Of a stretch of DNA of 32,000 bases, positions 4,605 to 30,336 are shown in pieces; positions within the stretch are counted from its first letter, which is position 1, and each line of letters opens with the position of its first letter. Source of the stretch: Geotalea uraniireducens Rf4 (GTDB lineage Bacteria; Desulfobacterota; Desulfuromonadia; Geobacterales; Geobacteraceae); NCBI RefSeq assembly GCF_000016745.1, contig NC_009483.1, positions 4,350,001 to 4,382,000 of the forward strand. The letters run 5' to 3'. The position numbers and the translations under genes are program-made. The notes under the pieces are model-generated. The model had not been told where the DNA came from. It saw nothing but the letters and a program-made list of their open reading frames with translations, and did not search any database.

Positions 4605-5477
4605 TCAGGAGGGGTCAGCATCGGGGCCCCGGATCGGCTCAACGGCCTTACCCGCGTCGACTGCAGCAGCATTTCCGGTTGCAGGCGGCGCCTCCCGCTG
4701 CTCCGTCAAGGGGGCGGGGGATGCTGACCGGATGAATATGTCGATGGCAAGCGGGATCTTCGGGTCCGCCATATCGAGCGCCGCCGTTTCACCAGCTAAA
4801 AGTCCCAGGAGAGGGTCTGACTTGAACGCGCCAATGACGAAGCGCGCCGGAGCCGCCCCCTCGATACGATATTTCCCGTCAACATCGCTCGGGCCGCTCA
4901 GGTAGCGAACACGACCGATCACAGCACCGTCGCTCCCCGGCTCCAGGAGTTGGACAACCGCATTGGCAACAGGACGACCGGCACTGTCGCGAACCAATCC
5001 CGTTAGCGTAACAGGCATCGTTCGTCTGGCAGCAGGTGGTGGCAATTCAGTTACGGTCTGCGTTGCTGCCGCAAGCTGACTGGCGATTATTGCCGTTGCC
5101 TTCAATCTGTAGCTTAAACCATTGCGAACGATGATTTTTTGCGCTTGCGGACCGGTCAATGGCAAGCGGTGGGCCGGATCGGGCTGAGCGGCCCACGTAT
5201 GACCACCGATGCTGATGCCGGAGCCGATCACATATGTCCCCTCCGGCAACGACATGCTGAAGCTGCCATCAGGGGCACAGGAAGCGGCAAATAAAGGCGC
5301 AGCGTAAGGTGATGTGGGCGCTTTGTCGGCCTGGTAGGCGAACACGGCGCAACGCAACGGCTCCTGCTCCGGCGCAAGCTGCCCCGTGACGATACCGCCT
5401 GCATGTGCACAGCTTCCCGTGGCAATCAACCAGAAGGCGAAGAGCCGGGCAAACGAGGATTTCCATGTTGCGTCCAT
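4605..5477 (-). CDS. secreted protein with two carboxypeptidase-regulatory-like (CarboxypepD_reg, Ig-like beta-sandwich) domains and a low-complexity Pro/Ala tail
   Basis: The ORF track gives 4605..5501. I prefer the ATG at 5477 (MDATWKSSFARLFAFWLIATGSCAHAGG, a signal peptide) because GGAAAGGTGGG lies just upstream and it leaves a 14-nt gap after the upstream TGA. Domain motifs: CAPDGSFSMSLPEGTYVIG and VTLTGLVRDSAGRPVANAVVQL...DVDGKYRIEGAAPARFVIG. Confidence 0.75.
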   Translation of the reverse strand: MDATWKSSFARLFAFWLIATGSCAHAGGIVTGQLAPEQEPLRCAVFAYQADKAPTSPYAAPLFAASCAPDGSFSMSLPEGTYVIGSGISIGGHTWAAQPDPAHRLPLTGPQAQKIIVRNGLSYRLKATAIIASQLAAATQTVTELPPPAARRTMPVTLTGLVRDSAGRPVANAVVQLLEPGSDGAVIGRVRYLSGPSDVDGKYRIEGAAPARFVIGAFKSDPLLGLLAGETAALDMADPKIPLAIDIFIRSASPAPLTEQREAPPATGNAAAVDAGKAVEPIRGPDADPS

Positions 5478-5491
5478 AGGCCCACCTTTCC

Positions 5492-8400
5492 TCACGGACA
5501 TGAGCTTTGACCGTTGACGTAGTCCGGCATGGTAATGGTCACCTCGTTGGACGGCGAGGTGATCCCCCCTATCAGCACGGTGTCGTCCAACTCGGTGACA
5601 AGAGTCATGGTTTCGCTCCTGGCAAGATATTGGGAGATCATGCCGTAGTAACCCGGCGCCGCCTGAAATTCGGTATTACTCTGGAACGGCTGCCAACCAT
5701 TCCCCGCGCTATTGGCGACCCAGGCGGTCACTGTTCGTCCGATCCTGGTGATCCGTAACCCACCGGACGTGTTATCGGCATTCGCCCCGTTACAGTAACC
5801 GGTCCCATCCAGCGCCCAGCAGATTTCGTATGCATTGGTCGTCGAGCCGTACCGTCCTATGTAGAAGTAGTTGCTTCGAGTGCCGTCTCCCGCAGTGGCC
5901 GGCATATTGAACTGGAGCCGGGCATAGACGTGGTACTGGTTCCCGGTCACCTCTCCGGCAGGAAGGCGCAACTTCGTGGAGAAATCGAAGTCGCCGAGGA
6001 GTGGCGTGACATCTGATAGAAACAGCCGCGCCGAATTCCAGCTGTTGGCAACGCCGTTTCCGCTCGACGATTCGCTCAAGGTGACCACCCCGTTCGCTGC
6101 AACTATGGAGGAATTGCCGTTCGATGTTGTAAAGTTGAGCGGGGGGGTTTGGGCATCGACCACCGTTAGATTGTTTGCATCCTTCATGGTCACACGTTGC
6201 GACCAGATGGCCGGATTGATCCCGGCCGAGAAATCATCGGCCAGGAGTTTGTAGGGGCGCACACGAAAGATGCCGCTCCCCCCCGCACCAAGCACCCCCG
6301 ACAGTGTGTAACTGTTGGTTCCGTAAGGAATTCTGGCAACGACTCCCCAATTATCTCCCTGCTTGAACTCCAACTGGTAACCGGTCGGAGCGGTGCCACT
6401 CCCGGGTGTGATAGCGAATTGCACCTTGTAAGGGCTCAAGGGTACAGCATTCAATACCGCAGGACCGTAAGGGCTGGTCCCGCCACAGTACTCTGGTCCC
6501 ATTGCCGCCTCACCGGAACTGTTAAAGGCGACTACCGAGTAACAGTACGTGGTGTTGGCAGTGAGGTTGGCAGAGTCGTCATAATCGAAGATTTTCGCCA
6601 CTGGAGACGTACAGGCGATGGTCGAAATATCCGAACCACAGAACCATTCTACGTATGGCACGTTAATGGTAGCTGCGAGATTCTGGTTGGATCCGCTACC
6701 GCCGTCTTTCCTGTAGATCTTATAGCCGGTAGCTCCCTTTACCAGGCGGATTCCTACAGTAATTTGGCTATCGGAACGGGTAATAAGTAACGGCACGCCC
6801 GCCGTGGCTGGAGTTGCAGTAGTGCTCACAGATACCGACGGGGTGGAGTCCCCTCCGGCGTTGACCGCCTTGACCCGATACCAGTAGGTCGTCCCGGCTA
6901 CAAGGCTGCTGTCCGAATAGCTCAACACGTTCTGATTGGTAACAAGTGTCCAGCTGGCATTGTCGGTGGAGCGCTCCAGTTTGTACGTCGTGGCACTGGC
7001 AGAAGGGCTCCAGGAGACGGTTGCCTGGGTGGCGGTAACGCCCGAAATGCCGGTGATCGTCGGGGCAGAGCTGAGCGTCCAGACGGTTTTGATGACCGCA
7101 TCGTTAGACTCGATAGTCTTGCCGACCGACTCCACTTTCACCTGGTACTGGGTGCCGGGGGTAAGACCGGTGATGGTGTAAGGTGGAGGGCTCCAGGAAT
7201 GGGGGGAGGACAACGGTCCGCTCCAAGCGCCGTCGGCCGCTTTTTTGTAGTAGATGTTGTAGCTGTAGGCCTGATCGATACGCCCCCAAGTGACGGTTAT
7301 GGATGAATCGGTGGATGTGGTCGAGACGATGGGTGGTGGTGTCGGCATGGTCTGGACGTAGCCGTCTGCCGGACTGACCGTTTGGGAATCGATGGTGGTC
7401 CCGTAGAAGCTCGTCCGCACGAAAGCCTTAATTCCCGGCCCACGACCGGCGGAATAGGTGTAGCTGCATGTCGCAGTTGCGCATGTCACGGTCGTCTGCA
7501 GCCCCCACCCCGCCCAATAGCCGGGATAGGTTTCCGGTGTGCCGCCAGAACTATACTGGTAGCCGCTCAGATAGACGTCGAAGTTCATCGACGTCGGGAA
7601 GTTCGTGTTGTCCCAGTCGAGTTTGATGGTCGTCGCGGTCGGTGTGGAAAGGGAGAGCGAAGGCTTGGCAGGCGGCGCCTGGGCAGTCTGGCAGAGCTCG
7701 TTTGACCACGCTTCGGCAGGTCCGCCTGCTGCGGTGTAGGCACGGATGCGGTAGCAGTACTGGGTACCGTCGGTCACGGCGGTATCGATCCAGTTCAGGG
7801 TGTTTGCCGCGAGCCCTGTCGCGACCGTTGTCCAGGCACCGGATGGCGGGCGCCGTTGAACGTCGAAGTTGTCTTCGTAGGTGTCGGTCCAGACCGGCCG
7901 GAGCTGGTTGGAGGCCGGGATGTCGATGTTGGAAAGAGTGACCACAAGGGGGGGGAAAACAACGATGCCGTTGCTGTCCACAGAGGTCGTGCCGCCGCTC
8001 TTCGTCCGGACCGAAACGTACCAGCCGCGGTAGTAGGGTGCCAGGACGCCGCCGCCCGTGCCTGAAACGGCATCGGCTGCCATGGTGGCAGAATAAATCG
8101 TACCCCAGCAATAGGTGGCCGGATTGGCGAGGATTGTAGCGATCGAAGCGCTTGCCGCGCAGCTCTTGCCGACCAGATCATACCCGGTATTGCCCGGCAC
8201 CTGGGTCCAGGTGGCAGTGAACGTTGTTGAGGTCAGGGCGGACGCGGACTGAAGAGTCGGCGGGACGAGCGGGGTGGTTACGGACTGCTCCGGTCCCGCG
8301 GCCGGGTTTTCGACCCCGTTATAGCGCGCGTAGACACGATAATAGTAGGTGGTGTTCGGGGTAAGCCCCGTGTCGCTGAAGCTGTAACTGCCCGGATAGC

Positions 8401-11400
8401 CTACAGTTGACCATGTGCCCGCTCCGGTTTTGCGCTCGACCCTGTACCCGTTGGCATCCCAGCTGATGCAATAAATCCACGACAGGTCGATCTGATTGGC
8501 GTTCGGTGCTCCGTAGCTCCACCAACCCGTGACCGGGTTCGGTGCGGTATAGGACGGCACGGAATCAGCCGACGGCAGAGACCAGCCGGCAGAGCTCTGC
8601 ACGGAAAGACGGTAGTAGTAGGTAGTCGCCCGCGCGAGGCCGGTATCGTCGTATGAAGTCGTATTCGCCGCCAGGGTGGCGACGGCCGCATACGTGCCGC
8701 CTGTTCCGGCCTTCCGCTCAAGCAGGTAGCCGGTATTGCCGGCAATGTTGGGCCAGGATATATTGAGCGAGCTCGTCGTTACAGGGTTCGGGTTGGTTGC
8801 AGCCGGCGCAGCCGGTTTCGCCAGGGTGGTGGTGGCGCAGAACTCGTTATAACGGGTAGTAACGGAGTTCAGATCCGCATAGACCCGCCAGCAGTAGGAG
8901 GTGTTGGGAGCCAGGCCGGTATCGACGAAAGAGGCGGCATCCATGGATAGCTTACCGTTGATCGTTCCCGGCGGGTCCACCCATGAACCGGACCCCTGGA
9001 TACTCCGCTTCAGGTATGGAGTGGTGCCCGCAGTCACGTTGGTCCAGGAGAGATCGACCCTGGACGAATCCGCCTCGGCGACAGCCAGCAATGCATTGGG
9101 CATGACGACCAGGTCATTGACGATCTTGAGGGCAAGGAAATTCCTGTCGCCGGCATCGGAGGTGGTGTAGCCGGCGACAAAACCCTCGCCGAACTTGTTG
9201 GCGGCGATCGTTGCGGCATGATCTTCCTTGCCCGCCGTTCCGTTGTAAAGGAATGACTTTACATAGTCGCCGGCGGAGGTGTAGATGGCGGCCACGACAT
9301 CGGTATTAGGGCTTGCGCCGGTATCCCCGGCAATGTAGATGTATCCTGATGGATCGAGGGAGAGACCAGTCAGGACCTCATCGGCGCCGGGACGGCTGAG
9401 TTCCCTTTCCCAGAGGAGGGTTCCCGCGGTATCGTAGCGAAGAAGCGCCAGGTCCCGGTCATTGGCGCCGCGATAGGCCTCACCGGCGACCACGATCTCA
9501 TTGTCGAAGCTGTCATAGGCGATCTTGCGGGCGGCCGAATTGCCTGCTGCCATCCCCGCCGGGTAGGTCCTGACCCAGCGGCGGTCGACTGCTCCGGTCG
9601 CCCCACCCAAATATTTGATGACCACCATGTTCGTAAAACCGGTCGGGACGTCGGTGACGTAGCCGGCCACGTAAACGTCGCCGGCAGCGTCGATGGCAAG
9701 CGACAGTGCCCGGTCATTGCCGCTGCCGCCGTAGGTGTCGCTCCAGAGGACAGCGCCGGTGACGCCGTCCAGCTTGGCGACAAACCAGTCGTTATTGCCG
9801 GCAAGGTCGACCCGGCCGGCGACAAACACACTTCCGGCTGCATCAAGGGAGACGGCTGCGGGATATTCATTGCCCCCCAGATGGCTTTGAGCCGTAAAAA
9901 CAACCGTGCCTGTTGCGGAGAGCTTTCTTACGTAAAAATCGATGTTCGAGAGGTCTGCATTGCCGTGACCGGTGACGGCAACGGCGTACGGCGCGCCCCC
10001 CTGAACGGCCACCGCATCGGCATGGTCTGAAAGCCGGCCGGCGCCGTTCAGCTGATCGGTCCACGCTGGAGTCGCCTCAAGCACTCCGTCGATGGTGGGT
10101 GAAAACGGGTACTTGTGGGTCCAGACCGAAGGTATGTTGCCCGCGCCGGGGACGCTCTGGCTGGAGGTGCCGGTCATGACGGCTTCAAGGTTCTGATCCA
10201 CGGCAATAGCCACTGCATCGTCATCTTCGTCGTACCCCCCGTCGCGGCGGTCCTGCCAAAGCACCTCGAAGGTGCCGCGCTTAAGCTTTACCGTATAGTA
10301 ATCTTTGGATGGATTGCCCATAAGGTTCTGGTCGGCATGAATAGTACCGGTGAAGACCACCGATCCCCCCGAGAAGCAGGCGGCATCAATAGCCTGATCA
10401 TCCCCTCCGGCCGGATCGGCGTAGACATAGGTAAGCGCCGGTGAGGCGAAGGTGGCGACCCTGGTGAGGGCGTTTGCCTCTCCGGAAAGGTCGCCGTTGC
10501 CGGAACCGTCGTAAGCCTTGACCCGGAAGTAGTAATCGGTGTCGGGGAGAAGCCCCGTCACGTCGAAGTTGACGACACCGGAGCCTGGCTGGTCGGGGGT
10601 CGGTATCGTGTAAGCGTCCTGGCTCCAGGCCCCGTTTTCGCCGATCTTTATGTCCACCTTGAAACCAGTCTCGGTTTCGGTGTTGTCGAGGAAGGAGAGC
10701 TGCACCGACGTATTGCTCAGCACCTGGGTGGCGAGGCCGGTCGGCGGGTCGAGCACCCCTTTGTCCTGGCGGAGCACCACGTAGTCGATGTCGTCCTGGT
10801 CGTAGAGATAGTAGAGATCGCCGCTCGCCACGACGTAGGGGAGCGCCTGGGATGCGGCGAGGGTAATGGTTGTGGCGTCGTTCCCCTGGATGCGACGAAA
10901 GATGTCCTTGTTCTGACTGCTGACCATGTATAGGGTGTAGCCCGCCCATTGGTCCGCGGTCCACGACTTATTCCCGTTCTGCAACGAGGTCTTGGACCCG
11001 CCTGTGGCGGCCTGCGTCCCCCCGTCGAGTGGCTGCGTCCGGTCAGTCCAGACAGCAGTCACCACCCCCTGCCCCGCGAGGCTGATCCCCACCGGGCGAG
11101 AGCTGTTGCCGATCACCCCGCTCCATTCCCTGTCCCAGAGGAGCCGCCCGTTCTTGCGGCTGAACTTCGCTGTTACGACCTTCTTCACCCCAACATAGTC
11201 GCGCCACCCTGCGACAAAGACTCCGCCCGCCGGATCGACCGCAAGCGCAGAGGCCCCGGATGCATTGATCGACCCGGCATCGTAGGTACTGCTCCAGACG
11301 GTGTCGGGGACTGCAGTCCCGTTCTTGTGGTATTTGACGACGAAAAGCTTTGAAAATGCCGGAAGGACCCCGGCCGTAGCAGCGACATAAACGTCTCCCG

Positions 11401-12352
11401 CCGGATCGACGGTCACAGCGGCCGGCTGATCGTCGAAGCCGGCATCGTAGACAGACTCCCAGACAGGTGTCGCGGAGCCCGGCACCAGTTCTGCGGTATA
11501 GAGATCATCCCCGCGGCCGTTGGTCAGGTAGCCTGCGACCACCACATTTCCTGCAGGCGTAAAGGCGAGCGCCGTGCCGCGATCGTTGTAGGAACCGGCG
11601 CCACTCTTGGGCCAGACACGAAGCTGGTTGCCGGCAGCGTCCCAGAGGAGAGTGACCAGATCCAGGTCGGTGCCGTTGGACGACTCGCCGGTCAAGGCTA
11701 TTCCGTTCCCGTCCGACGAAACAGCGACGGCGTAAGCGAGATCGGTCCCGCCGGCATCATAGGTCTTCGCCCAGAGCGGCGGATTGTCGCCTGTCACAGT
11801 GTTATCGAAGGCGAGCAGCAGACAGTCGTCATTGCTGCCGTTGTTTGAATAGCCGGCCACATAAACCCGGTCGTTGACCGGATCGTAGACCACCGCCTGG
11901 GGGATATCGGCTCTCCCGGCCGTGCCGGACCAGGTCCTGCTCCAGACCACCATTGGGGTATTTGTCCCGTTGTCGCGGTAGCGGACCACGTAAACGTCGT
12001 AGTTGCCGGCATTCATGACGCTCGCCGCAACGATCGCGTCGCCCGACTTGTCGATCGTCACCGCCACCCCTTGGTCACTGCCGCCTGCAATGTCATAAGC
12101 GGCCCGCCAGACAACCGAACCGTCGGCCGCGTACTTGACCGTGTAGACGTCGTCATTGCCGTCGCCAGCCAGGCTCTGGTAGCCGGTAACGACCGTTGAC
12201 CCGCTGGCCGGCACGATCGACGCAGCGCGCGCCTCCTGCTTTCCCTTGCGGGAGTCCATAAGCGGATGGCCTGTGAGGTCAGCGCCCCCGCCCGCCAGAA
12301 CCGGCGTAGCCAGGACAAGTAAGATGGCTATGGATGTAATGAGTCTTCTCAT
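5492..12352 (-). CDS. giant (2286-aa) secreted protein: SBBP-like beta-propeller block, FN3, second beta-propeller block, about 10 FN3-like domains, C-terminal concanavalin/LamG-like domain
   Basis: The ORF track gives 5492..12517. I trim the start to the ATG at 12352 (MRRLITSIAILLVLATPVLAGGGADL, a signal peptide, with GGAGAA 7 nt upstream). The longer form would overlap the upstream gene by 151 nt. Propeller blades repeat a pattern such as DPAGDVYVAG(Y)...(D)D..VVKY...G...W. FN3 domains carry T(T)YYYRV/TQYCYRIRAY-type F-strand motifs. Approximate layout in nt: propeller 1 at 10756-12270, FN3 at 10460-10755, propeller 2 at 9125-10455, FN3 array at 6250-9100, lectin-like domain at 5495-6250. 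Confidence 0.85.
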   Translation of the reverse strand: MRRLITSIAILLVLATPVLAGGGADLTGHPLMDSRKGKQEARAASIVPASGSTVVTGYQSLAGDGNDDVYTVKYAADGSVVWRAAYDIAGGSDQGVAVTIDKSGDAIVAASVMNAGNYDVYVVRYRDNGTNTPMVVWSRTWSGTAGRADIPQAVVYDPVNDRVYVAGYSNNGSNDDCLLLAFDNTVTGDNPPLWAKTYDAGGTDLAYAVAVSSDGNGIALTGESSNGTDLDLVTLLWDAAGNQLRVWPKSGAGSYNDRGTALAFTPAGNVVVAGYLTNGRGDDLYTAELVPGSATPVWESVYDAGFDDQPAAVTVDPAGDVYVAATAGVLPAFSKLFVVKYHKNGTAVPDTVWSSTYDAGSINASGASALAVDPAGGVFVAGWRDYVGVKKVVTAKFSRKNGRLLWDREWSGVIGNSSRPVGISLAGQGVVTAVWTDRTQPLDGGTQAATGGSKTSLQNGNKSWTADQWAGYTLYMVSSQNKDIFRRIQGNDATTITLAASQALPYVVASGDLYYLYDQDDIDYVVLRQDKGVLDPPTGLATQVLSNTSVQLSFLDNTETETGFKVDIKIGENGAWSQDAYTIPTPDQPGSGVVNFDVTGLLPDTDYYFRVKAYDGSGNGDLSGEANALTRVATFASPALTYVYADPAGGDDQAIDAACFSGGSVVFTGTIHADQNLMGNPSKDYYTVKLKRGTFEVLWQDRRDGGYDEDDDAVAIAVDQNLEAVMTGTSSQSVPGAGNIPSVWTHKYPFSPTIDGVLEATPAWTDQLNGAGRLSDHADAVAVQGGAPYAVAVTGHGNADLSNIDFYVRKLSATGTVVFTAQSHLGGNEYPAAVSLDAAGSVFVAGRVDLAGNNDWFVAKLDGVTGAVLWSDTYGGSGNDRALSLAIDAAGDVYVAGYVTDVPTGFTNMVVIKYLGGATGAVDRRWVRTYPAGMAAGNSAARKIAYDSFDNEIVVAGEAYRGANDRDLALLRYDTAGTLLWERELSRPGADEVLTGLSLDPSGYIYIAGDTGASPNTDVVAAIYTSAGDYVKSFLYNGTAGKEDHAATIAANKFGEGFVAGYTTSDAGDRNFLALKIVNDLVVMPNALLAVAEADSSRVDLSWTNVTAGTTPYLKRSIQGSGSWVDPPGTINGKLSMDAASFVDTGLAPNTSYCWRVYADLNSVTTRYNEFCATTTLAKPAAPAATNPNPVTTSSLNISWPNIAGNTGYLLERKAGTGGTYAAVATLAANTTSYDDTGLARATTYYYRLSVQSSAGWSLPSADSVPSYTAPNPVTGWWSYGAPNANQIDLSWIYCISWDANGYRVERKTGAGTWSTVGYPGSYSFSDTGLTPNTTYYYRVYARYNGVENPAAGPEQSVTTPLVPPTLQSASALTSTTFTATWTQVPGNTGYDLVGKSCAASASIATILANPATYCWGTIYSATMAADAVSGTGGGVLAPYYRGWYVSVRTKSGGTTSVDSNGIVVFPPLVVTLSNIDIPASNQLRPVWTDTYEDNFDVQRRPPSGAWTTVATGLAANTLNWIDTAVTDGTQYCYRIRAYTAAGGPAEAWSNELCQTAQAPPAKPSLSLSTPTATTIKLDWDNTNFPTSMNFDVYLSGYQYSSGGTPETYPGYWAGWGLQTTVTCATATCSYTYSAGRGPGIKAFVRTSFYGTTIDSQTVSPADGYVQTMPTPPPIVSTTSTDSSITVTWGRIDQAYSYNIYYKKAADGAWSGPLSSPHSWSPPPYTITGLTPGTQYQVKVESVGKTIESNDAVIKTVWTLSSAPTITGISGVTATQATVSWSPSASATTYKLERSTDNASWTLVTNQNVLSYSDSSLVAGTTYWYRVKAVNAGGDSTPSVSVSTTATPATAGVPLLITRSDSQITVGIRLVKGATGYKIYRKDGGSGSNQNLAATINVPYVEWFCGSDISTIACTSPVAKIFDYDDSANLTANTTYCYSVVAFNSSGEAAMGPEYCGGTSPYGPAVLNAVPLSPYKVQFAITPGSGTAPTGYQLEFKQGDNWGVVARIPYGTNSYTLSGVLGAGGSGIFRVRPYKLLADDFSAGINPAIWSQRVTMKDANNLTVVDAQTPPLNFTTSNGNSSIVAANGVVTLSESSSGNGVANSWNSARLFLSDVTPLLGDFDFSTKLRLPAGEVTGNQYHVYARLQFNMPATAGDGTRSNYFYIGRYGSTTNAYEICWALDGTGYCNGANADNTSGGLRITRIGRTVTAWVANSAGNGWQPFQSNTEFQAAPGYYGMISQYLARSETMTLVTELDDTVLIGGITSPSNEVTITMPDYVNGQSSCP

Positions 12353-12366
12353 GTCTCTTTTCTCCG

Positions 12367-15300
12367 TCACTCGCTGTAGCTGCGCGGCGGCGCAAGGCTC
12401 GGCCACGGGGTCACGTTGTTCCACATGTTCTCTTGCGGCCACTGGTTGGGAATCGCCGGCTGGATGCCATTCACGTACGTCGGCGAAATGGTGATGTCGG
12501 CGCGCCGCAGATGACACTGGGTGTATGCCTCGTACTTGTATCGGTCAGCCATATAGGCCGGATCGCTGGTGAAGATTTTGCTGTTGATGATCCCGCCGAT
12601 CGGGTAGCCCCAATGGCCGCCAGTCCAGTCGGCGCGGCTCCCGGAAAGGATGTCGGCCGCAGAAACCTTGCCGCCGGAGGCGACCCGCCCCCGGTGCTGG
12701 TAGTCGAGACAGTTGGTCACCATGAGCCGCGGCAGGGCAGATGAGTGGGGCTGGTGACACTTTGAACAGGTAAACGAGTGTTCCGTATTCGCCCCCCAAC
12801 CCTTGACCGATTCGTGCATCCGGTCGCGCGATTTCCAGTCGGTGTTCTTGTTCACCCCGTCGGTCAGCTTCCGCTGCTGGTGACAGCGCAGACACAAGCC
12901 GGCAAACTGCTTGTCGCTTTCCGCGATCCGGTTCGTGTTGAAGGTGTTCCGGTCCGTGTTCCAGCCGAGCAGCACGGGTACGGTCGGCTTTCGGTTGTCC
13001 CAGCCAAGCTGCGTTGATCCAGCCCCGGCGCCGAAGTATCCGCCCCATCGGTAGGGGGGGGAGGCGATACCGCCGTTGGCGCTGGGTGGAGGTGCATCTT
13101 CCTTGTAGGGGTTGGTCATCCAACTTCCCTTGAGGAGCGGCACGGCATAAGGCATCTGTTCGCCAAGGGTCGGAGATACCCCGTGCGGGTCATGGCATGG
13201 CGTGCAGAGTCCGTTGATCCGCTCGTGACTCGAGTAGTTGAGCATGCTCGAAGCGGAGAAGTGGGTCCCGGCGACCGTTGTCTTGCGGAACGGGAAACGG
13301 GTGTAACGCCCTTTGGTCCCCCCGCCGAAGCGCGGGCTGTCGTCGTACCCCATGACCGCCTGGCTGGCGCTGTAGGTCGACTGGTATCCCCACGGCCTGG
13401 TCGACGAGGCGTTCTGGTTCTCGTGACAGTCGAAGCACTGGCCGGCGCCTGCAGCGTACAGGTTCTTGCCGGAAACGTTCCCCTGGGCCATATAGGTGGC
13501 GCCGTATCCACCCTTGCCGTTCTGGGTTTCCTTGAGGTTGGCGCCGTTACGCGTATTATTGAATGTCACATAGCTGGAGGTGGTGCCGTTGACTTTCGAG
13601 CCATGGGAATTGTGGCAGTCGTAGCACTGGATGTTTCCCCCCGCGCCCCTCGTGTTCGGCGGCGCTGCGTCGTAACCGTCGGCAGCGTTCCACCCCCCCT
13701 GGTTGGCGGCTGCGTTGCCGTGTGCCGAGAACGCCTTGACGACAGTGTCCTTTTTGTTGGCATTGGGATAGGTACCGGAATTCACCTTCCCCCAGGTGGT
13801 CGTTCCCATCTGGGCGTAGCGGGCAGCGATCGACTGGCCGTCCCAGGCATACTGACGCGGGGTCTTGCAATCACCGAACGGGGTCGTGTCGTTGTTCTGA
13901 TCGGAGTGACAGGAGAGGCAGTGGTTGGTCAGTTTCGCCACTTCTGTCCGCTCGTTCGCCGTGGTGACCCGGTTGGCGAGAAACTGGACCGCCGAAGTGC
14001 TGCTGTAGAAAGTCGGTCTTTCTCCCGGCCGCCAGACCACCAGGTCGACCTTGGCGTCTTTTACCCCCGAGTAGGTCCTGAAATCGAATCCCTCGTGACG
14101 GTTCGTGTCGATCGTTCCGAACGAGGTCGCTTCCCAGTGGCAGGCGTAACACTGCCGCCCGGTAAGCGCCACACCAGGGTTCTGGACGTGGTGCGAGTTG
14201 CTGTTGAACTGCCCGACCACGTCGGCCCTAGCACCAATGGAGCCGGCGTGACACTTGACGCAGATGACCGGCAGACCGAAGGCCACGTGCTTGGGCACCG
14301 GCTTGGCGTTGGTGTGGCAGGTGTTGCAACTCTGAGAGTCGGCATGGGCATCGGCAAAACGGTGCATGTGACAGCTGGTGCATATCTTGGTCGCGTTGTG
14401 GCCGTCGCTGAAGTTGCTCAGATAATGCTTGGAATCCGGGCCGTGACAGACATTGCAGATCTTGTTGGAGGCACCTGCATAGTCGCTACCCTTTGTCTTC
14501 TGGGTGAAGGAGACGGCCGCCCGCGCCTGGGGTACGCCGTATTTCCCGTCCGTAGTGGTCGCCACCTGGCTCTGAATCATATAGATGTTGTCGTCGCCGT
14601 GGGGGTCATGACAGTCCCAGCAGAATTTCCCCCCCTTCCACGTCCCCAGAAACTTGCCGTTTGCATCCTTCGCCCACCCTCCCGAGTTGATGAAGGCACC
14701 GTAATGCTTCTTGCCGAAGTGGGCGGCCGAGGCCCGCGCCTTTTTCGGCTTGATGAAGCCCGTGCCTGGGTCGAAGCCAAGGGAATATTTACCGGGGTTG
14801 TCCGACGGCGCCGTGTGGCAGAAGATGCACTGTCCGCCGGAGTCGTCGTCGTGGCACTGCAGACAAACGCCCATCATGACGTACTGGCTCTTGATGTCGG
14901 CCTTATGGGTGGTATTCCAGCTACCGGCACCTGTTGAGTGCCCCTTATGCCCCCCCGATGGCGCGAAAACCCCGTCATCCGAGTCATGGCAGCCGGACGT
15001 GGTGCAGGAATCGAGATAACCGTGGCTGGTCCAGTCGGTCCGGGTACCGCCGGAGCGCAGTTTCACAACGATCCCGCCTATAGTCGCCTGGGGCGCCAGG
15101 CTCTCAAGTTGCCCCACATGACATTGTATGCACTCATAGTCCTTATGCTCCATATGGCAGTATACGCATTCTTTCTCGAAGCGCTGCTCGTACTGCGTGT
15201 GCCTCTTGAGCCGGAACGGATTCGACCCCTCTCCATGGATAACCGTATTGTCGTGACAGTACCAGCAGGGATTGCTCGGGAAGTTGGCGGCCGGGTTGTT

Positions 15301-17442
15301 CGACCCCGGATAACGCCCGGCCGTCGAATAGCGGCCATGGCCGGTAGACACCCACTGACCGAGGTTGATCCTCGCCATGGTCCCGTTGTCGAAACCGGCA
15401 AAGGTGTCCAGGTCAGGCCCGGCAGTGCCGTGACAATTGAGACAGATAATGCTCGAATTGACCGACGCCCCCCACTGGGGATCAGTGGCGCCGGTATGAC
15501 AGCGGGTGTTGGAGCAGGTCTTGTTGGTCGGGCGGTACGAGCCGCCGGCGTTGAATATGACGTCCCGCGTTTTGTTCACGTGGTAGGCGGGATTGATGTG
15601 AGCCGTTTCCCCCATGTTCCCGGTCGGCAGTCCCCCGGCGTGACAGGTTTTGCAGTCGCCGTTGATAACAGTTGCTGCATGGCAGTTGCCGCAGGTGAAC
15701 GAGGTGCCGGTATGGCGCGGATGAGAGTTGGCGCGTGGCTCCCCTGCACCCTCGTTATGGAAGATCGGCATCGCCGCCCGCCATTCGGTGCCGGTGGACC
15801 AGCTGGTGAAGACCGGCCAGAACTTGCCGTCGTGGCTGGCGCCGTCATGGCAGCCGTTCGCGTTGCACGTTCCGGTAATCGGGTGACCGTGACAGGCGTT
15901 GCAGCGCGACCATCCCTTATTGGGCCAGCTCGGCTGCTTCACTTCCGCATCGAGCGGGTTCACTGTGCCGTCCGAGTGGCAATAGACGTTGCTGCAGCTA
16001 CGGGTGGCCGGGTCGTAGGATGGTGCAGGGCGACCGGCAATGTTCCACTGGGGATCGACCGCCACCTGCTTGGTCCCGTCGGCATGTATGGTCAGGGCCT
16101 TGATGGCGCCGGCCGCAGTCACCGTCTGATAATGGCAGTAACTGCACGGATACTTCCTGATCCATTGGGGTCCGACATGTTTGGCATGTGCGTTGGTGGA
16201 GATGTTCACGAACGGTGTGCAGACACCGTTATCTCCGTTCCAGGCGCCACCGATCTCGGTGCAATTGTCATAGGTCGAATCGACCGTCAACCCTCGATGG
16301 CAGTAAAAGCATTTGTAGGGACCCTGATCGCTCCAGGACGGCGTCTTGAAGCCCGGACGGCCAAGGGCGTTCGAATGGCAGTAGGTGCTCGTGCACTGTT
16401 TTGAGCCTGCGGTGTAGCTGCCGCCATCCTTAAAGGAGACATCCTTCTCCCCATTGACATGCTTTTGACGGTCTGTGATCATCGCTGAACCGGTGGCGGT
16501 CGAGTTGTGGCACTTGTCGCAGACGTATTGGTAATCCTTGGCGTGCCTGTCATGGCGGGGACTCATGGTCACGGTATCGCTGTTCCCGCCGTGGCAACCG
16601 GTACAATCGAGCGACCCGCCCCAGGTCGGAGCGGCAAAGGTGTTCACCCGGCCGGCAGGGTTACCGTTCGAATGGCAGTAAATATTGTTGCAGCCGCCTG
16701 TTCGTCCCGTGCTTTGCGACGGCAGGTAAATGGGATAATCCACATTGCCGGAGTACGAGCCGCCGCTGTTGGGGGAGGTCAGAAACTGCACGGCCAGCGC
16801 TCGGCGGCCTGCGCTGGTGGCGTGGGAAAATGAGGTGTGCACGGGATGGCATTTGCCGCAGCTGTTCTCGTCTACGCGGTAATAGTCGCCATGTTTTTTA
16901 CCCGACCCGCTCTGGGAGGGATGGCTTCCGTCGTCAGGCGGCAAACCGTGGCAGGCATTGCAACCGGACGGAGCTTCTAGTAGCTGGTTTCCCCATTCCG
17001 GAGTGCTCTTTTCAAAGTGACAATTGACATTGGCACAGCTGCCGAGGGTCGGATTAGGCGTTTGGGGAAAAGGGGTGGTCCAGTTGCCAAATGATGAGGT
17101 GCGGTTTTTATATACCGCATTAACGGGGGAATTATTGATATTGCTGGAAAGCTTGATCAGTCCGTCACGATGGGAGGAGTTGTAGCTTTCGCTTCCCGGA
17201 TGGCAAATGGCGCAGTTTGCCGGCCCGGCATACGCAGGGAGGTGGGTGCGGTGCTTTCCCTGGAAGCCGCCGGTCGTAATATTCCGGTAACTATCTTCCA
17301 GCGGCCGGAAATCGGCGGTTTTCTTACTCCCGTGGCAATCGTAACAGGAAATCGACGCCTCCGCCACGCTACCCATAACCGTCATCGCCAGCAGCAACAT
17401 CAGTATGCGGTTACATATCCGCCTCAGCTTATTGTCGATCAT
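12367..17442 (-). CDS. giant (1691-aa) secreted multiheme c-type cytochrome, about 36 heme-binding motifs
   Basis: Signal peptide MIDNKLRRICNRILMLLLAMTVMGSVAEA. By hand I count 29 CXXCH motifs and 7 CX4CH motifs (CANVNCH, CNNIYCH, CTSTYCH, CSNVYCH, CNANGCH, CSNTRCH, CTTSGCH). The CX4CH...CXXCH pairing matches the Geobacter CxxxxCH...CXXCH domain family (TIGR01904) as I recall it. The TGA at 12367-12369 lies 14 nt before the next ATG. Confidence 0.9.
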   Translation of the reverse strand: MIDNKLRRICNRILMLLLAMTVMGSVAEASISCYDCHGSKKTADFRPLEDSYRNITTGGFQGKHRTHLPAYAGPANCAICHPGSESYNSSHRDGLIKLSSNINNSPVNAVYKNRTSSFGNWTTPFPQTPNPTLGSCANVNCHFEKSTPEWGNQLLEAPSGCNACHGLPPDDGSHPSQSGSGKKHGDYYRVDENSCGKCHPVHTSFSHATSAGRRALAVQFLTSPNSGGSYSGNVDYPIYLPSQSTGRTGGCNNIYCHSNGNPAGRVNTFAAPTWGGSLDCTGCHGGNSDTVTMSPRHDRHAKDYQYVCDKCHNSTATGSAMITDRQKHVNGEKDVSFKDGGSYTAGSKQCTSTYCHSNALGRPGFKTPSWSDQGPYKCFYCHRGLTVDSTYDNCTEIGGAWNGDNGVCTPFVNISTNAHAKHVGPQWIRKYPCSYCHYQTVTAAGAIKALTIHADGTKQVAVDPQWNIAGRPAPSYDPATRSCSNVYCHSDGTVNPLDAEVKQPSWPNKGWSRCNACHGHPITGTCNANGCHDGASHDGKFWPVFTSWSTGTEWRAAMPIFHNEGAGEPRANSHPRHTGTSFTCGNCHAATVINGDCKTCHAGGLPTGNMGETAHINPAYHVNKTRDVIFNAGGSYRPTNKTCSNTRCHTGATDPQWGASVNSSIICLNCHGTAGPDLDTFAGFDNGTMARINLGQWVSTGHGRYSTAGRYPGSNNPAANFPSNPCWYCHDNTVIHGEGSNPFRLKRHTQYEQRFEKECVYCHMEHKDYECIQCHVGQLESLAPQATIGGIVVKLRSGGTRTDWTSHGYLDSCTTSGCHDSDDGVFAPSGGHKGHSTGAGSWNTTHKADIKSQYVMMGVCLQCHDDDSGGQCIFCHTAPSDNPGKYSLGFDPGTGFIKPKKARASAAHFGKKHYGAFINSGGWAKDANGKFLGTWKGGKFCWDCHDPHGDDNIYMIQSQVATTTDGKYGVPQARAAVSFTQKTKGSDYAGASNKICNVCHGPDSKHYLSNFSDGHNATKICTSCHMHRFADAHADSQSCNTCHTNAKPVPKHVAFGLPVICVKCHAGSIGARADVVGQFNSNSHHVQNPGVALTGRQCYACHWEATSFGTIDTNRHEGFDFRTYSGVKDAKVDLVVWRPGERPTFYSSTSAVQFLANRVTTANERTEVAKLTNHCLSCHSDQNNDTTPFGDCKTPRQYAWDGQSIAARYAQMGTTTWGKVNSGTYPNANKKDTVVKAFSAHGNAAANQGGWNAADGYDAAPPNTRGAGGNIQCYDCHNSHGSKVNGTTSSYVTFNNTRNGANLKETQNGKGGYGATYMAQGNVSGKNLYAAGAGQCFDCHENQNASSTRPWGYQSTYSASQAVMGYDDSPRFGGGTKGRYTRFPFRKTTVAGTHFSASSMLNYSSHERINGLCTPCHDPHGVSPTLGEQMPYAVPLLKGSWMTNPYKEDAPPPSANGGIASPPYRWGGYFGAGAGSTQLGWDNRKPTVPVLLGWNTDRNTFNTNRIAESDKQFAGLCLRCHQQRKLTDGVNKNTDWKSRDRMHESVKGWGANTEHSFTCSKCHQPHSSALPRLMVTNCLDYQHRGRVASGGKVSAADILSGSRADWTGGHWGYPIGGIINSKIFTSDPAYMADRYKYEAYTQCHLRRADITISPTYVNGIQPAIPNQWPQENMWNNVTPWPSLAPPRSYSE

Positions 17443-17796
17443 GCGCCCCCCACTATAAGCCTCTCTGCCCGGACCATTTACGGTTCTGCAAATGTCGTCA
17501 GATATAGGCCCACAAATATATATAAAATTTAATATTATTTATAACTAATTAACAAATATCACGATGTTACAGTTTTCATTAAACATAAATATTTAGGTTT
17601 TTGCCCTGAAAATGGCATCCACAAACGCGGCATAAAGCAGGATTTAGCGGAGTCAATTTCCCTGTGCGTGAAATAACCGCCTGGAAATGCGTGCATCGTT
17701 TACATATCGCAGTCTTACACGGTAATAGATGCAATATTAAAACCATTTATGAAGTTAGTTGGACGGGTCACCGAAGAGAGCCGGCGTTTGGGGGGA
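17443..17796 (-). promoter_or_regulatory. 354-nt non-coding region upstream of the cytochrome gene with an extremely AT-rich core, presumed promoter/regulatory region
   Basis: No credible ORF. In 17521-17600 I count 12 G/C out of 80 nt, set in an otherwise GC-rich locus. I found no convincing terminator after the tsaB stop at 17797. I could not assign specific -35/-10 elements. Confidence 0.4.
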
Positions 17797-25788: not shown

Positions 25789-26958
25789 ATGAAGAAAACC
25801 CTCTATCTCTATATTTTCAAGGAAATACCGCCGCCATTCTTGCTGGGAGTGGCTACCTTCACCTTTGTCCTGCTCATGGGACGGCTCCTGAGACTGGCCG
25901 AAATGGTCGTGACAAAGGGGGTGCCCCTTGCCGATGTCCTGCGCATGGTTTTCTACCTGCTCCCCTCGTTTCTTCTCGTCACCATACCCATGGCGTTTCT
26001 CCTGGCAATTCTTCTCGCCTTCGGCAGGCTTTCAGGCGACAGCGAGATCACCGCGATGAAAGCCAGCGGCGTAAGCCTTTACGGACTGCTCCCGCCAGTT
26101 TTCTGTTTTGCGCTCATTGCCTACCTGGCCGGCGCATTTATTACCGTTTACGCCGTTCCATGGGGAAACACCTCTTTCAAAAAACTGCTGGTCGAAGTGG
26201 TGGAAGCCCGCGCCTCTCTCGGGATAAAGGAAAAGATATTCAACGACGACTTCCCCGGCTTGGTCATTTACACAGACCGCTACAATCAGCAGAAGCAGAC
26301 CATGTCCGGCATCCTTATCCAGGATGAACGGGATCCGCTCGAGCCGTCAACCATCTATGCCCGGAGCGGCGTAATCAACTCCGACCCCGCAACAAAGTCG
26401 ATCAGACTGCGCCTCGATAACGGCAGCATCCATCGCACCCAAGGTAAGACGGGCTACCGTCTGGTCGAGTTCCGCAACTACGACCTGAACATAAACCTTA
26501 ACCAGGCGGCCCAGACAGTAAACAAGAACGAATTGGACATGTCGCTTGCGGAACTCCGCGCCAACCTCGCTTCGGGCCGCTTCGACGCCAAAATGATGCG
26601 CGATATGCGCTTGGAATATCACCGTCGCTTCTCGCTCCCCTTTGCCTGCCTCATTTTTGCCCTCGTGGGGATGCCGCTCGGCATACAAAACCAGCGATCC
26701 GGCAAAGCAGCCGGCTTTACCATGAGCATTGGCCTGCTCCTCGCCTATTACATTGTCCTCTCCGCCGGGAAAGCCCTCGGAGAAAGAGAACTCCTCAGTC
26801 CACTTCTGGCAGTCTGGGCACCCAACCTGCTCTTTGTATCCCTTGGCATCTACCTGTTCAAAACAACAGCTGCCGAGGAGAGAATCCCTCTCTATGCTTT
26901 TCTCACAGGCATTGCCGGCTGGCTGCGCAGCAGATTGACAAAGAGGGGCGAACGGTGA
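25789..26958 (+). CDS. lptF: LPS export ABC transporter permease LptF (YjgP/YjgQ family)
   Basis: 389-aa ORF starting MKKTLYLYIFKEIPPPFLLGVATFTFVLLMGRLLRL. Topology is typical of the family: three TM segments, a large periplasmic beta-jellyroll and three more TM segments. It is paired with a second family member. Confidence 0.85.
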   Translation: MKKTLYLYIFKEIPPPFLLGVATFTFVLLMGRLLRLAEMVVTKGVPLADVLRMVFYLLPSFLLVTIPMAFLLAILLAFGRLSGDSEITAMKASGVSLYGLLPPVFCFALIAYLAGAFITVYAVPWGNTSFKKLLVEVVEARASLGIKEKIFNDDFPGLVIYTDRYNQQKQTMSGILIQDERDPLEPSTIYARSGVINSDPATKSIRLRLDNGSIHRTQGKTGYRLVEFRNYDLNINLNQAAQTVNKNELDMSLAELRANLASGRFDAKMMRDMRLEYHRRFSLPFACLIFALVGMPLGIQNQRSGKAAGFTMSIGLLLAYYIVLSAGKALGERELLSPLLAVWAPNLLFVSLGIYLFKTTAAEERIPLYAFLTGIAGWLRSRLTKRGER

Positions 26959-28034
26959 AAATATTCAGCCGCTACATCGCCACAGCCTATGCAAAGATGC
27001 TTGGCCTCTGCCTGGGAGCTTTTATTGCCATCTACCTGGTTGTCGATTTCCTGGAAAAAATCGGCCGTTTTGCCCGCGCCAATGCTGAATGGAAGTTTAT
27101 TGCCTTGTTCTTTCTGACTCGAGTCCCTGAAATCATCTGTCAGACTGCGTCAATGGCCGTCCTGATGGCCACACTCCTGACCCTCGGCATGCTCTCACTG
27201 AACAGCGAACTCACCGCCATGCGCGGCTGCGGGCTCAGCCTTGCTCGCATCACTGCACCGATCTTCGCCATCGCCTTTGCCGTCAGTCTCTCCACTCTAT
27301 TCGTAAGTGAATTTGTCATGCCCAGATGTAATACCCAGGGGCAATACATTCGAGAAGTATTGATAGACAAAAAGAGTCCAAGCACATTTTTCCGTCAGCA
27401 AAATATCTGGCACAAGGATGAGAATTATATCCTCAAAGCCAGACTTTTCGACCCGGCAACCGGCAACCTGAAGGGGATAACACTCTGGAAGACGGGGACG
27501 GAGATGGAGCCGCAACAGCGTATCGAAGCCACTCAGGGAGAACTTCGCGGCAACGACTGGCTTTTCAGGGATGTGGTCATCCGGGAAATGGCGGGGGGAA
27601 ACATAATAAGTACCAAGTCATTTCCAGCGCTGCTGGTTAAACTGAATCTGAAGGCAGCAGACCTGAAAGTAGTCGGAAAGTTCTCCGACAATATGGGAAT
27701 ACGCGAACTGATCAGTTATTGCGACAAGCTCAGGAAAGGGGGATACGATCCAACCAGGTTTCTGGCCCAGATGCACTCCAGGATCTCGCTTTCCTTTGCG
27801 CCGGTGATCATGGCTTTCATCGGAATACCCTTTGCCATGCGCGGCGGCCGTTCAAGCGGCATCGCACTCGGCATCGGCACAAGTCTCGGTATCGGCTTTG
27901 CCTATTTCATCATCAATTCGGTCATCCTCTCATTCGGCCAGGCCGGTGTGCTGCCGCCACTTGTTTCGGCCTGGGCGACAAATCTCATTTTTATTATGAT
28001 CGGCATATGGTTTGGCATGAAGGTGGAAATTTGA
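26955..28034 (+). CDS. lptG: LPS export ABC transporter permease LptG (YjgP/YjgQ family)
   Basis: 359-aa ORF starting (GTG) MKIFSRYIATAYAKMLGLCLGAFIAIYLVVDFLEK. It overlaps the lptF stop by 4 nt (GTGA). Confidence 0.85.
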   Translation: MKIFSRYIATAYAKMLGLCLGAFIAIYLVVDFLEKIGRFARANAEWKFIALFFLTRVPEIICQTASMAVLMATLLTLGMLSLNSELTAMRGCGLSLARITAPIFAIAFAVSLSTLFVSEFVMPRCNTQGQYIREVLIDKKSPSTFFRQQNIWHKDENYILKARLFDPATGNLKGITLWKTGTEMEPQQRIEATQGELRGNDWLFRDVVIREMAGGNIISTKSFPALLVKLNLKAADLKVVGKFSDNMGIRELISYCDKLRKGGYDPTRFLAQMHSRISLSFAPVIMAFIGIPFAMRGGRSSGIALGIGTSLGIGFAYFIINSVILSFGQAGVLPPLVSAWATNLIFIMIGIWFGMKVEI

Positions 28035-28093
28035 CAAGGGACCATGCCGTGGTTTAATTGGCGAAGGAGTTAAGCGTTGAAAGGAGTCCGACC

Positions 28094-29023
28094 GTGATAT
28101 CCCGTTTCATCGTTTTTTTGATCGTTATTACACTTGCGACTTTCCAGCCGGTCTTCGCGGCAAAGGGCAAAAAAGTGGCCCAACGGGCTGCTGCACAAAA
28201 GACGCCCGCCCCCCCGGAAGAGCAGAGCCCTCCCATCAACATCCTGAGCATCATCCCTGCCCAGGGTGAGCCGGGGGTAACCGTAACCCTCAGCGGCACT
28301 GGATTTACCGACAAGACCACTGCGTTTCTTGGTGGTGTCGGTATGCCGACGAAAGTGATAGGGCCCAAAATACTTACCTTCGACATACCCGATCTCCCCC
28401 CCGGACTCTATGCTCTCTTTTTAAGGCGGGAAGATGGAGCTACCAGCAAACCGTATAACTTTATACTACAGGCGCAAAAGCCGGTGGCGATGTCACTGTC
28501 GCCCGACACGATATACAATTGTGCCAGCGGGAAGGAGCGCGAAGTGGTTGTCAGTGGTCGGAATTTCCAGGAAGGGGCGCAGATCCTGCTGGACGGAGCT
28601 GCGATCAAAAGCCGCACTCTCTCGCGCGAATCCATTTCATTCAACGCTCCATCCCAGCTCTTCAGCGGACTCCACCAAGTGCAGGTGAAAAACCCTACGG
28701 ATGAAGTTTCCGGTGCGGTTGCCCTTTTCATCAATTCCAAGCCGGAGATTCTAAGCGTTAGTCAGGGGGGAGAGTTCGTCAATTACTATGAACTGATTAT
28801 CGAAGGGAAAAACTTTCAGCAGGGATCGACGCTCGTGGTGGATGGCGCAAATCTTAACAGTGGAACAGCACCCGCCACCGAACGTGAAAAGATTGTTTAT
28901 ATTGACTGCACCCGCCTCATTTACCAACGCCACCCGTACGACTCGACCCCGAAAAGCTTTAGTCTCCAGGTGATAAATCCAAACAGCGAGGAAAGCCCGG
29001 TAGTAACGGTGAATGCTCCGTGA
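28094..29023 (+). CDS. secreted protein with three IPT/TIG (Ig-like fold) domains
   Basis: The ORF track gives 28058..29023. I prefer the GTG at 28094 (MISRFIVFLIVITLATFQPVFAAKGKK, a signal peptide) with AAAGGAG 7 nt upstream. There are three IPT-like units: ILSIIPAQGEPGVTVTLSGTGF, the unit starting at VAMSLSPDT that contains EVVVSGRNFQEGAQILLDG, and PEILSVSQGGEFVNYYELIIEGKNFQQGSTLVVDG. Confidence 0.75.
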   Translation: MISRFIVFLIVITLATFQPVFAAKGKKVAQRAAAQKTPAPPEEQSPPINILSIIPAQGEPGVTVTLSGTGFTDKTTAFLGGVGMPTKVIGPKILTFDIPDLPPGLYALFLRREDGATSKPYNFILQAQKPVAMSLSPDTIYNCASGKEREVVVSGRNFQEGAQILLDGAAIKSRTLSRESISFNAPSQLFSGLHQVQVKNPTDEVSGAVALFINSKPEILSVSQGGEFVNYYELIIEGKNFQQGSTLVVDGANLNSGTAPATEREKIVYIDCTRLIYQRHPYDSTPKSFSLQVINPNSEESPVVTVNAP

Positions 29024-29122
29024 AAAGCGGTCGGCGGTCGGCGGTCGGCGGTCGGCAGTCGGCAGTCGGCGGTCGGCGGTCGGCGGTTTTAACTGCCGAC
29101 TGCCGACCGCCGACCGCTTTTC
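29022..29122. terminator. long GC-rich hairpin made of heptamer repeats, a likely bidirectional terminator between convergent genes
   Basis: The left arm is gaaaagcg plus 8 copies of GTCGGCR (29030-29085). The loop is gttttaa. The right arm is ctgccgactgccgaccgccgaccgcttttc (29093-29122). The right arm is the exact reverse complement of heptamer units 3-5, and it also pairs with units 6-8 through two G-U wobbles. Both strands end in CGCTTTTC after the stem. Confidence 0.6.
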
Positions 29123-29180
29123 AACTACCGACCGCTTTTCAACTACCGACCGCTTTTTTCACCTACCGCCCGCTTTTAAC
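29030..29180. repeat. composite simple-sequence array: 8 direct heptamers, 3 inverted heptamers, then about 4 tandem copies of an 18-nt unit CCGACCGCTTTTCAACTA
   Basis: The 18-nt units lie at 29110-29127 and 29128-29145. A 20-nt variant lies at 29146-29165 and a degenerate copy (ccgcccgcttttaac) at 29166-29180. The last copy is inside the 3' end of the VOC gene, where it encodes ...VKSGR plus the stop. Confidence 0.9.
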
Positions 29181-29579: not shown

Positions 29580-29586
29580 GCGCCCC

Positions 29587-30327: not shown

Positions 30328-30336
30328 TATTCCCTA

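Follow-up and report, generated by a model that had tools for sequence, protein, structure and literature searches.

The OmcS, OmcE and OmcZ filaments, which carry electrons outside the cell along long-range heme chains, are polymers of 4-8-heme subunits, and the large multiheme cytochromes of anaerobic methanotrophic archaea (ANME) are fused to S-layer-type domains. In the present work we analysed a 32,000-nucleotide stretch of DNA from Geotalea uraniireducens Rf4 (NC_009483.1, positions 4,350,001 to 4,382,000, forward strand; called the window below), in which the gene for a secreted multiheme cytochrome is directly followed by that for a secreted giant protein devoid of redox cofactors, two proteins that probably work together. 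Compared with the three filament proteins, the window's cytochrome is one chain with 36 heme-binding motifs, is paired with a non-redox giant and lacks sequence similarity to known structures (a phmmer search against all PDB chains gave 0 matches at E<=1e-3). With the ANME fusions it shares the concept of a heme chain combined with a non-redox surface module, but the domains are unrelated and the two parts are separate polypeptides, apparently joined after translation. GSU1996, a dodecaheme 'nanowire' made of c7-type modules, resembles it in being a single polypeptide with a linear heme chain and repeated small modules, while differing in heme number (12 instead of 36), in the lack of a sequence match at E<=1e-3, and in having no known giant partner or intermolecular cysteine.

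Long single-chain "nanowire" cytochromes without characterised homologue were predicted in a 2024 survey of Desulfuromonadia cytochromes, which is silent on a propeller/FN3 partner and on a cysteine link (PMC11492766). Beta-propeller genes of the NHL type have been described beside outer-surface multiheme cytochromes, namely UetH/I in the Uet pathway (PMC9900912) and DFE_0451 and DFE_0463 in the cytochrome clusters of Desulfovibrio ferrophilus (PMC9769857). These are small propellers in porin-containing clusters, whereas the giant of the window has doubled SBBP propellers, an FN3 stalk and a cysteine-bearing tail, with no conserved porin. The giant also has SBBP repeats in common with the LipL53-type lipoproteins of Leptospira (NF047494, 2.9e-20), at a score of 72 bits that is far under the 400-bit cut-off; the latter lack an FN3 stalk and a cytochrome partner, and the giant is not a lipoprotein.

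Relatives of the cytochrome within the same family include the 'cytochrome c, 37 heme-binding sites' of G. daltonii FRC-32 and a 1521-aa cytochrome of G. metallireducens GS-15 (52-55% identity over >=85% of the length). Both have the same module order, the same three non-heme cysteines and a giant encoded directly downstream. We found no experimental characterisation of the TIGR01904 / PF09698 relatives of Geobacterales in the searchable literature. A preliminary description of this DNA, made from the letters of the sequence, had stated that no characterised system was known to pair such proteins, and we likewise found no account of the pairing, nor of the tail motif or a cysteine link (subscription-only papers were outside the search).

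Pairing of the cytochrome and giant genes

The locus consists of three co-directional open reading frames (ORFs), all on the minus strand and separated, as first described, by gaps that both measure exactly 14 nt (12353-12366 and 5478-5491):

12367..17442, minus strand: cytochrome gene, encoding a 1691-aa secreted multiheme c-type cytochrome with 36 heme-binding motifs and TIGR01904 / PF09698 / PF14522 modules
5492..12352, minus strand: giant gene, encoding a 2286-aa secreted non-redox protein
4605..5477, minus strand: small-protein gene, encoding a 290-aa secreted accessory protein with two CarboxypepD_reg/transthyretin-like beta-sandwiches and a Pro/Ala-rich tail

Inspection by eye agreed with Sec-type signal peptides on all three products (AEA-S in the cytochrome, VLA-GGG in the giant, AHA-GG in the small protein). 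A GGAG-type ribosome-binding site had been claimed for each gap; the first gap indeed contains GGAG, while the second has GAGGAAAGGTGG, a Shine-Dalgarno-like sequence that is not strictly GGAG. The 14-nt gaps, the Shine-Dalgarno-like sequences and the three signal peptides are signals that suggest co-expression, as are the intergenic regions that set the unit off on either side.

A survey of related loci, using one genome per species, returned 79 loci, 69 of which had a near-complete cytochrome and >=2 kb of sequence downstream of it. In 68 of these 69 loci a collinear giant homologue follows on the same strand, starting within 500 nt in 66 of them; the giant of the window lies 14 nt downstream, on the same strand and collinear. 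The partner giants of the survey loci are about 30% identical, with lengths of 2005 to >3368 aa. Carriers of the pair belong to Geobacter, Geotalea, Geoanaerobacter, Pelobacter, Trichloromonas, Geothermobacter and Desulfuromonadaceae and include metagenome-assembled genomes (MAGs) of Nitrospirota/Thermodesulfovibrionia and Desulfobulbia; one genome may have as many as three paralogous pairs, and the pair is present in two cultured strains, G. metallireducens GS-15 and G. daltonii FRC-32. The genomic contexts of the pairs are otherwise unrelated, the sole other recurrent neighbours being a family of small beta-sandwich proteins (22 loci) and NtrC-type regulators (14 loci).

A HMMER search with the double propeller retrieved 1052 proteins at E<=1e-30, with many collinear giants (2000-4870 aa) among the top ranks. 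A metagenome scan with the giant alignment was dominated by generic FN3 patterns and told us little; of its three closest relatives, two were preceded by a cytochrome gene, while for the third the sequence did not extend upstream.

The only locus without a giant, L049, comes from a MAG labelled Polyangiaceae. Directly downstream of its cytochrome gene, on the opposite strand, is a multi-domain member of the small-sandwich family; the cytochrome has kept Cys1192 and lost Cys1578, two residues that are described below.

A cysteine kept or lost in both proteins

Apart from 72 heme cysteines and a local pair (C394/C408), three single unpaired cysteines are conserved in the cytochrome, namely C1192 and C1578 (each in 62 of 65 aligned cytochromes) and C1643 (64/65). 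The first of these belongs to a heme-free insert (residues ~1179-1272) about 70% of the way along the 36-heme chain, and a further cysteine is found at the very end of the giant:

13867..13869, minus strand: codon of Cys1192, in FGDCKTPRQY, a non-heme cysteine inside the 94-aa heme-free insert of the cytochrome
5495..5533, minus strand: C-terminal tail motif of the giant, TMPDYVNGQSSCP, with the Cys2285 codon at 5498-5500

Cys2285 is the penultimate residue of the giant and has no nearby intramolecular partner; 14 other cysteines of the protein make up seven obvious local intradomain pairs. In the structure model the tail segment has a low predicted local distance difference test (pLDDT) score, compatible with a flexible stretch. 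Almost every collinear giant ends in ...[ST]-x-P-x-[YFW]-x(4-7)-C-x(0-3), whether an FN3 or a ConA-like domain precedes, and the tail cysteine is kept in 18/19 aligned giants, as well as in a majority of the collinear homologues that were inspected (2000-4870 aa). The preliminary description had noted no known C-terminal sorting signal. This holds for the Pfam and NCBIfam models, none of which matched (type 9 secretion system (T9SS) CTD, LPXTG, PEP-CTERM, GlyGly-CTERM, MYXO-CTERM), but the cysteine tail conserved throughout the family had been overlooked. Unrelated SBBP proteins in the library search have T9SS-like ...KKMxLLK tails, whereas the giant of the window stops one residue after the cysteine. 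Three collinear giants of 3400-4100 aa (P0202, P0203, P0216) have a different conserved tail, ...EEHxLYRxxYNTRVxxP, in place of the cysteine motif.

The family is marked by TP-x-[YFW]-x(4-7)-C-x(0-3) as consensus in the giant and by the cysteine of FGDCKTP in the cytochrome; the window has TMPDYVNGQSSCP in the giant and FGDCKTP in the cytochrome. Cys1192 and the tail cysteine were found to covary, with 35 pairs having both (the window, 31 survey loci, L011, L020 and G. daltonii), 7 pairs having neither and 0 discordant pairs. Five of the pairs without either cysteine (L036, L068, L163, L164 and L169) have FGD[YF][RK]TP in the cytochrome and ...GDNV[GN]P tails in the giant, with Gly or Asn in place of Cys. 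L166 has Gly in the cytochrome and a tail motif without Cys. In L167 the giant ends in ...GDTTWAR (Cys to Trp), from which we predicted that the cytochrome would also have lost its cysteine; this was then confirmed (FGDSKTP, Cys to Ser). The joint losses fall into three lineages, i.e., the clade with Tyr or Phe and ...GDNVGP tails, L166 and L167, and comparison with nearest neighbours indicated three independent events. Two apparent exceptions, L011 and L020, have the motif internally, ahead of an extra C-terminal domain, and two loci that look like frameshifted or truncated assemblies (L008 and L017) were set aside. One MAG contains the cysteine-less pairs L036 and L068 together with a cytochrome that bears Cys1192 (L029, whose giant is cut off before the tail), which indicates that the loss is gene-specific rather than genome-wide, at least in the cytochrome.

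That one cysteine in each of two secreted proteins is kept or lost jointly points at least to direct contact between them, and an intermolecular disulfide would be the simplest explanation. The idea of the preliminary description that the cytochrome and the giant form one machine is supported by the pairing in 68/69 loci and by cysteines that are kept or lost together.

The cytochrome

The predicted number of 36 hemes proved correct, as the 1691-aa protein has 29 CXXCH and 7 CXXXXCH motifs. From its matches in hidden Markov model (HMM) searches, it is clearly a member of the TIGR01904/PF09698 family: TIGR01904, which had been named beforehand, scored 139.6 bits (2e-41; cut-off 27) over five stretches and PF09698 51.5 bits (cut-off 21.7), and PF14522 Cytochrome_C7 was matched at 4.5e-23. 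We found 589 homologues at E<=1e-10, mostly of 1400-1800 aa. The third conserved cysteine is part of a near-invariant motif close to the C-terminus:

12514..12516, minus strand: codon of Cys1643, in a single QCH (Cys1643-His1644), present in 64/65 cytochromes

It could be a 37th heme site with a single thioether or provide an axial ligand or ligand pair. Cys1578 has been lost in three members that retain Cys1643. The hematite-binding motif was matched once in the cytochrome and once in the giant, numbers that are too low to be interpreted.

The giant

The propeller/FN3/lectin make-up proposed for the 2286-aa giant agreed with our domain map, and no heme motif was found in it:

10955-12289, minus strand: SBBP propeller A, residues ~20-466
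10478-10750, minus strand: single FN3 domain between the propellers, residues 535-625
9158-10468, minus strand: SBBP propeller B, residues 629-1065
6248-9100, minus strand: FN3 array with >=8 recognisable FN3 domains, residues 1085-1954
5534-6247, minus strand: ConA-like domain, residues 2036-2273, followed by the cysteine tail

The fn3 match (PF00041) was strong (3e-35, 120.6 bits for a cut-off of 25), and nine FN3 units could be delimited by iterative search. SBBP (PF06739) was close to its threshold of 20.5 bits, with 20.0 bits for the whole protein and 20.7 bits for fragment 629-1072, and DUF5122 was borderline. Across the family, SBBP was matched in 17/19 giants (best 4.5e-20) and fn3 in 19/19, while the ConA-like modules varied (DUF2341 in 8/19, Laminin_G_3 in 3/19). 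The C-terminal 250 aa of the giant had no Pfam match. Its AlphaFold2 (AF2) model (pLDDT 77) was a jelly roll, and the best matches of this model in a Foldseek search were legume lectins, VIP36, calreticulin and PL7/GH16 enzymes (E 2e-6 to 1e-4 and TM 0.45-0.6 for the lectins, VIP36 and PL7 lyases). The C-terminal domain thus models as a ConA-like fold, in line with the lectin-like assignment made earlier.

The small sandwich protein

PF13620 CarboxypepD_reg scored 30.2 bits in the small protein, against a cut-off of 32.3, and was found in 20/20 aligned family members at E<=0.01 (best 3.8e-14). The AF2 model (pLDDT 51) was too poor for a fold search. A role as lipoprotein anchor was considered and dropped, as the lipobox-like Cys23 is not kept among orthologues (43-96% identity); the protein has an AxA cleavage site ahead of a conserved GGIVTG.

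The preliminary description had treated the three genes as a unit. In our survey the conserved unit is the pair, the small protein adjoining the giant in only 14/37 complete loci; in several others it is encoded at another place in the locus, and the orthologue of Geobacter sp. OR-1 has none beside it. This distribution indicates that the small protein is an accessory component. In L022, L024, L031, L032, L041, L059, L066 and L166 the region 3' of the giant gene encodes the small protein followed by a ~680-750-aa protein with multiple copies of the domain, or the latter in its place; in L166 this protein also has beta-helix/NosD domains. L011 has four copies of the small family 5' of the cytochrome gene.

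A proposed two-protein complex and its alternatives

We consider it probable that the two proteins form a conserved extracytoplasmic complex, accompanied in this locus by the third, accessory protein, in which Cys1192 and Cys2285 would probably make a disulfide and the giant would serve as tether or scaffold. After Sec export and periplasmic maturation, the cytochrome would be a single-chain molecular wire of ~36 hemes, probably disulfide-joined through Cys1192 to Cys2285. The C-terminal tail of the giant would be fixed in this way to the heme-free insert of the cytochrome, and from this attachment point backwards the giant, without redox cofactor of its own, would consist of the ConA-like domain, a stalk of ~10 FN3 domains and the two N-terminal SBBP propellers. 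The lectin-like domain would then be found beside the cytochrome and the propellers at the far end of the stalk, some tens of nanometres away as estimated from typical FN3 dimensions. The giant may keep the heme wire in place, either at the envelope or within the extracellular matrix, and its propellers and lectin-like domain would be the binding modules; it may in this sense be an adhesin towards minerals, electrodes or partner cells, and the complex may function in extracellular electron transfer.

Several points weigh against this arrangement. The whole model rests on sequence and structure prediction, and the covariation on just three independent loss events. The two cysteines may also have another joint role, such as shared metal or heme ligation, instead of forming a disulfide. 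The SBBP, ConA-like and CarboxypepD_reg domains alone do not point to a ligand. With respect to export and location, no porin, secretion gene or anchor recurs near the pair across the 79 related loci. There was, furthermore, no correlation between heme number and giant length (rho 0.12, p 0.48).

With this same rho of 0.12, the idea that the FN3 stalk is a length-matched sheath for the heme wire was unsupported. In the window itself, no porin-like beta-barrel or periplasmic multiheme partner (Pcc/Mtr-type conduit) is encoded between tsaB and ilvD.

A complex confined to the cell envelope would be in keeping with the lack of any porin, secretion gene or sorting signal conserved alongside the pair; in this reading the wire would span the periplasm as a conduit or would store electrons, and the giant would fix it to the peptidoglycan or the outer membrane. 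The transthyretin-like, DUF4198-type domains of the small partner are, moreover, common in periplasmic proteins, and the Desulfuromonadia survey raises the possibility of long periplasmic wire cytochromes (PMC11492766). Against such confinement, FN3 arrays and lectin-like modules are typical of surface or extracellular proteins. Furthermore, a 27-heme wire would measure ~350 A for an average periplasm of ~170 A (PMC11492766), and one of 36 hemes would be longer still, though this argument is indirect. On balance, we regard confinement to the envelope as unlikely.

The giant could alternatively be a transient assembly, folding or export factor, acting as a periplasmic template or chaperone through a temporary Cys-Cys link. 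Obligatory cis-pairing and cysteine covariation suit any intimate interaction equally, the lack of matching between heme number and giant length is compatible with such a role, and the maturation and periplasmic transit of long cytochromes are a noted problem (PMC11492766). This would, however, be a costly factor, as a protein of 2000 to >3300 aa with >=10 FN3 domains, two propellers and DUF2341/Laminin_G_3 modules looks like a surface protein and not like a chaperone; close spacing and Shine-Dalgarno-like sequences also suggest that the two proteins are produced in comparable amounts. We find a transient role rather improbable.

If the lasting complex that we favour is taken as a basis, one may tentatively go further and suppose, though we would not expect it on present evidence, that wires of 30-55 hemes, disulfide-locked to the C-terminal tails of giants encoded in cis, make up a distinct and widespread class of porin-independent cell-surface electron-transfer appendages in Geobacterales, Desulfuromonadales, Nitrospirota and Desulfobulbia, whose anchoring and contacts would be set by the partner.

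Inheritance of the locus

The three genes might also be unrelated neighbours or a recently acquired island, as implied by the earlier wording that the module is "wedged" between housekeeping clusters. The overall GC content would agree with this, at 0.605 for the module and a lower 0.54-0.57 for the flanks. The difference vanishes at third codon positions (GC3 of 0.63-0.76 in the trio and 0.63-0.74 in the flanks, i.e., equal), indicating that it reflects Gly/Ala/Thr-rich proteins and not foreign DNA. The trio sits between tsaB and ilvD, with upstream and downstream intergenic regions of its own, and Pfam searches bore out the core housekeeping flanks, with ilvN, ilvB and ilvD on one side and tsaB, rseP, dxr, cdsA, uppS, frr, pyrH, tsf and rpsB on the other. 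In agreement with the preliminary description, there was no tRNA or flanking repeat (no shared k-mer of >=10 nt between the two junctions), and none of the ORFs examined looked like a transposase or integrase.

The order tsaB-[cytochrome-giant-small]-ilvD is also found in a Geobacter MAG (L003; cytochrome 88% identical) and in Geotalea toluenoxydans (L044). The tsaB-side junction is shared by a second MAG (L004), whose contig stops before the ilvD side. With GC3 equal to that of the flanks, this synteny does not agree with a recent insertion, and a recent genomic island could be ruled out on the strength of GC3, of the lack of tRNA and junction repeats, and of the order shared with L003, L044 and L004. 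In L042, a cytochrome paralogue (49% identical) follows tsaB and is itself followed by a giant of >3340 aa. Other family members are likewise found among housekeeping genes (ATP synthase/parAB/serS, rplM-rpsI-argC, lptD/trpA).

Chance association or recent acquisition of the three genes is therefore most improbable, and for the cytochrome-giant pair an accidental neighbourhood is effectively excluded by pairing in 68/69 loci across phyla and by the covariation of their cysteines; for the small third gene it may still apply in part. The locus belongs, as an ordinary and vertically inherited member, to a two-gene system that is widespread.

Upstream region and neighbouring genes

Three features were noted 5' of the cytochrome gene:

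17443..17796, minus strand: intergenic region 5' of the cytochrome gene, 354 nt, AT-rich (41% GC)
17730..17745, minus strand: possible sigma-54 type -24/-12 promoter element, TGGTTTTAATATTGCA, with TGG-N8-TTGCA spacing, noted as a lead only
17527..17552, minus strand: AT-rich block, TTAATTAGTTATAAATAATATTAAAT, ~85 nt 5' of the cytochrome start codon

TGGTTTTAATATTGCA lies shortly past the tsaB stop codon, and its position is kept in the syntenic loci L003, L044 and L004, where the surrounding intergenic region is otherwise poorly conserved. TGG-N8-TTGCA occurs twice in the window for 1.37 matches expected, which is not above chance on its own, and a search with the strict sigma-54 consensus found nothing above chance. 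As a lead, we mention that a promoter at this position would give a 5' leader of ~280 nt. The NtrC-type proteins near 14/79 related loci are response regulators. The AT-rich block TTAATTAGTTATAAATAATATTAAAT is likewise kept in these syntenic loci and may serve as a promoter or as a site for integration host factor (IHF) or another regulator. No Rfam family, and hence no riboswitch or other known RNA, was matched 5' of the cytochrome gene, the AT-rich block included.

Further away, at ~12 kb from the cytochrome gene, two minus-strand genes (29587-30849 and 30846-31934) encode a membrane protein of the CcdA/DsbD type and a thioredoxin resembling TlpA/ResA (thiol reduction in the maturation of cytochrome c), and adjoin a sigma-54 activator without receiver domain. 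An IPT/TIG-domain protein (321 aa) and a 203-aa ORF without Pfam match are encoded on the plus strand at 28058-29624, after lptF and lptG (25789-28034).

Significance

In bacteria that are electroactive or reduce metals, the genes for cytochromes with >=30 hemes are among the most conspicuous ones still unexplained. The proteins have been predicted in surveys to be long molecular wires, but how these are held, exported and targeted is left aside there. What is new here is the near-universal pairing, together with a specific hypothesis of a covalent link, for a two-gene system that we found in no paper. The covariation names the residues concerned, Cys1192 and Cys2285, and GS-15 and FRC-32 are cultured carriers of the pair. 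If the giant is indeed an obligatory and probably covalently attached partner, the working unit would be a two-protein complex, and the pair may help to explain how long-range electron conduits are positioned on minerals, electrodes and partner cells.

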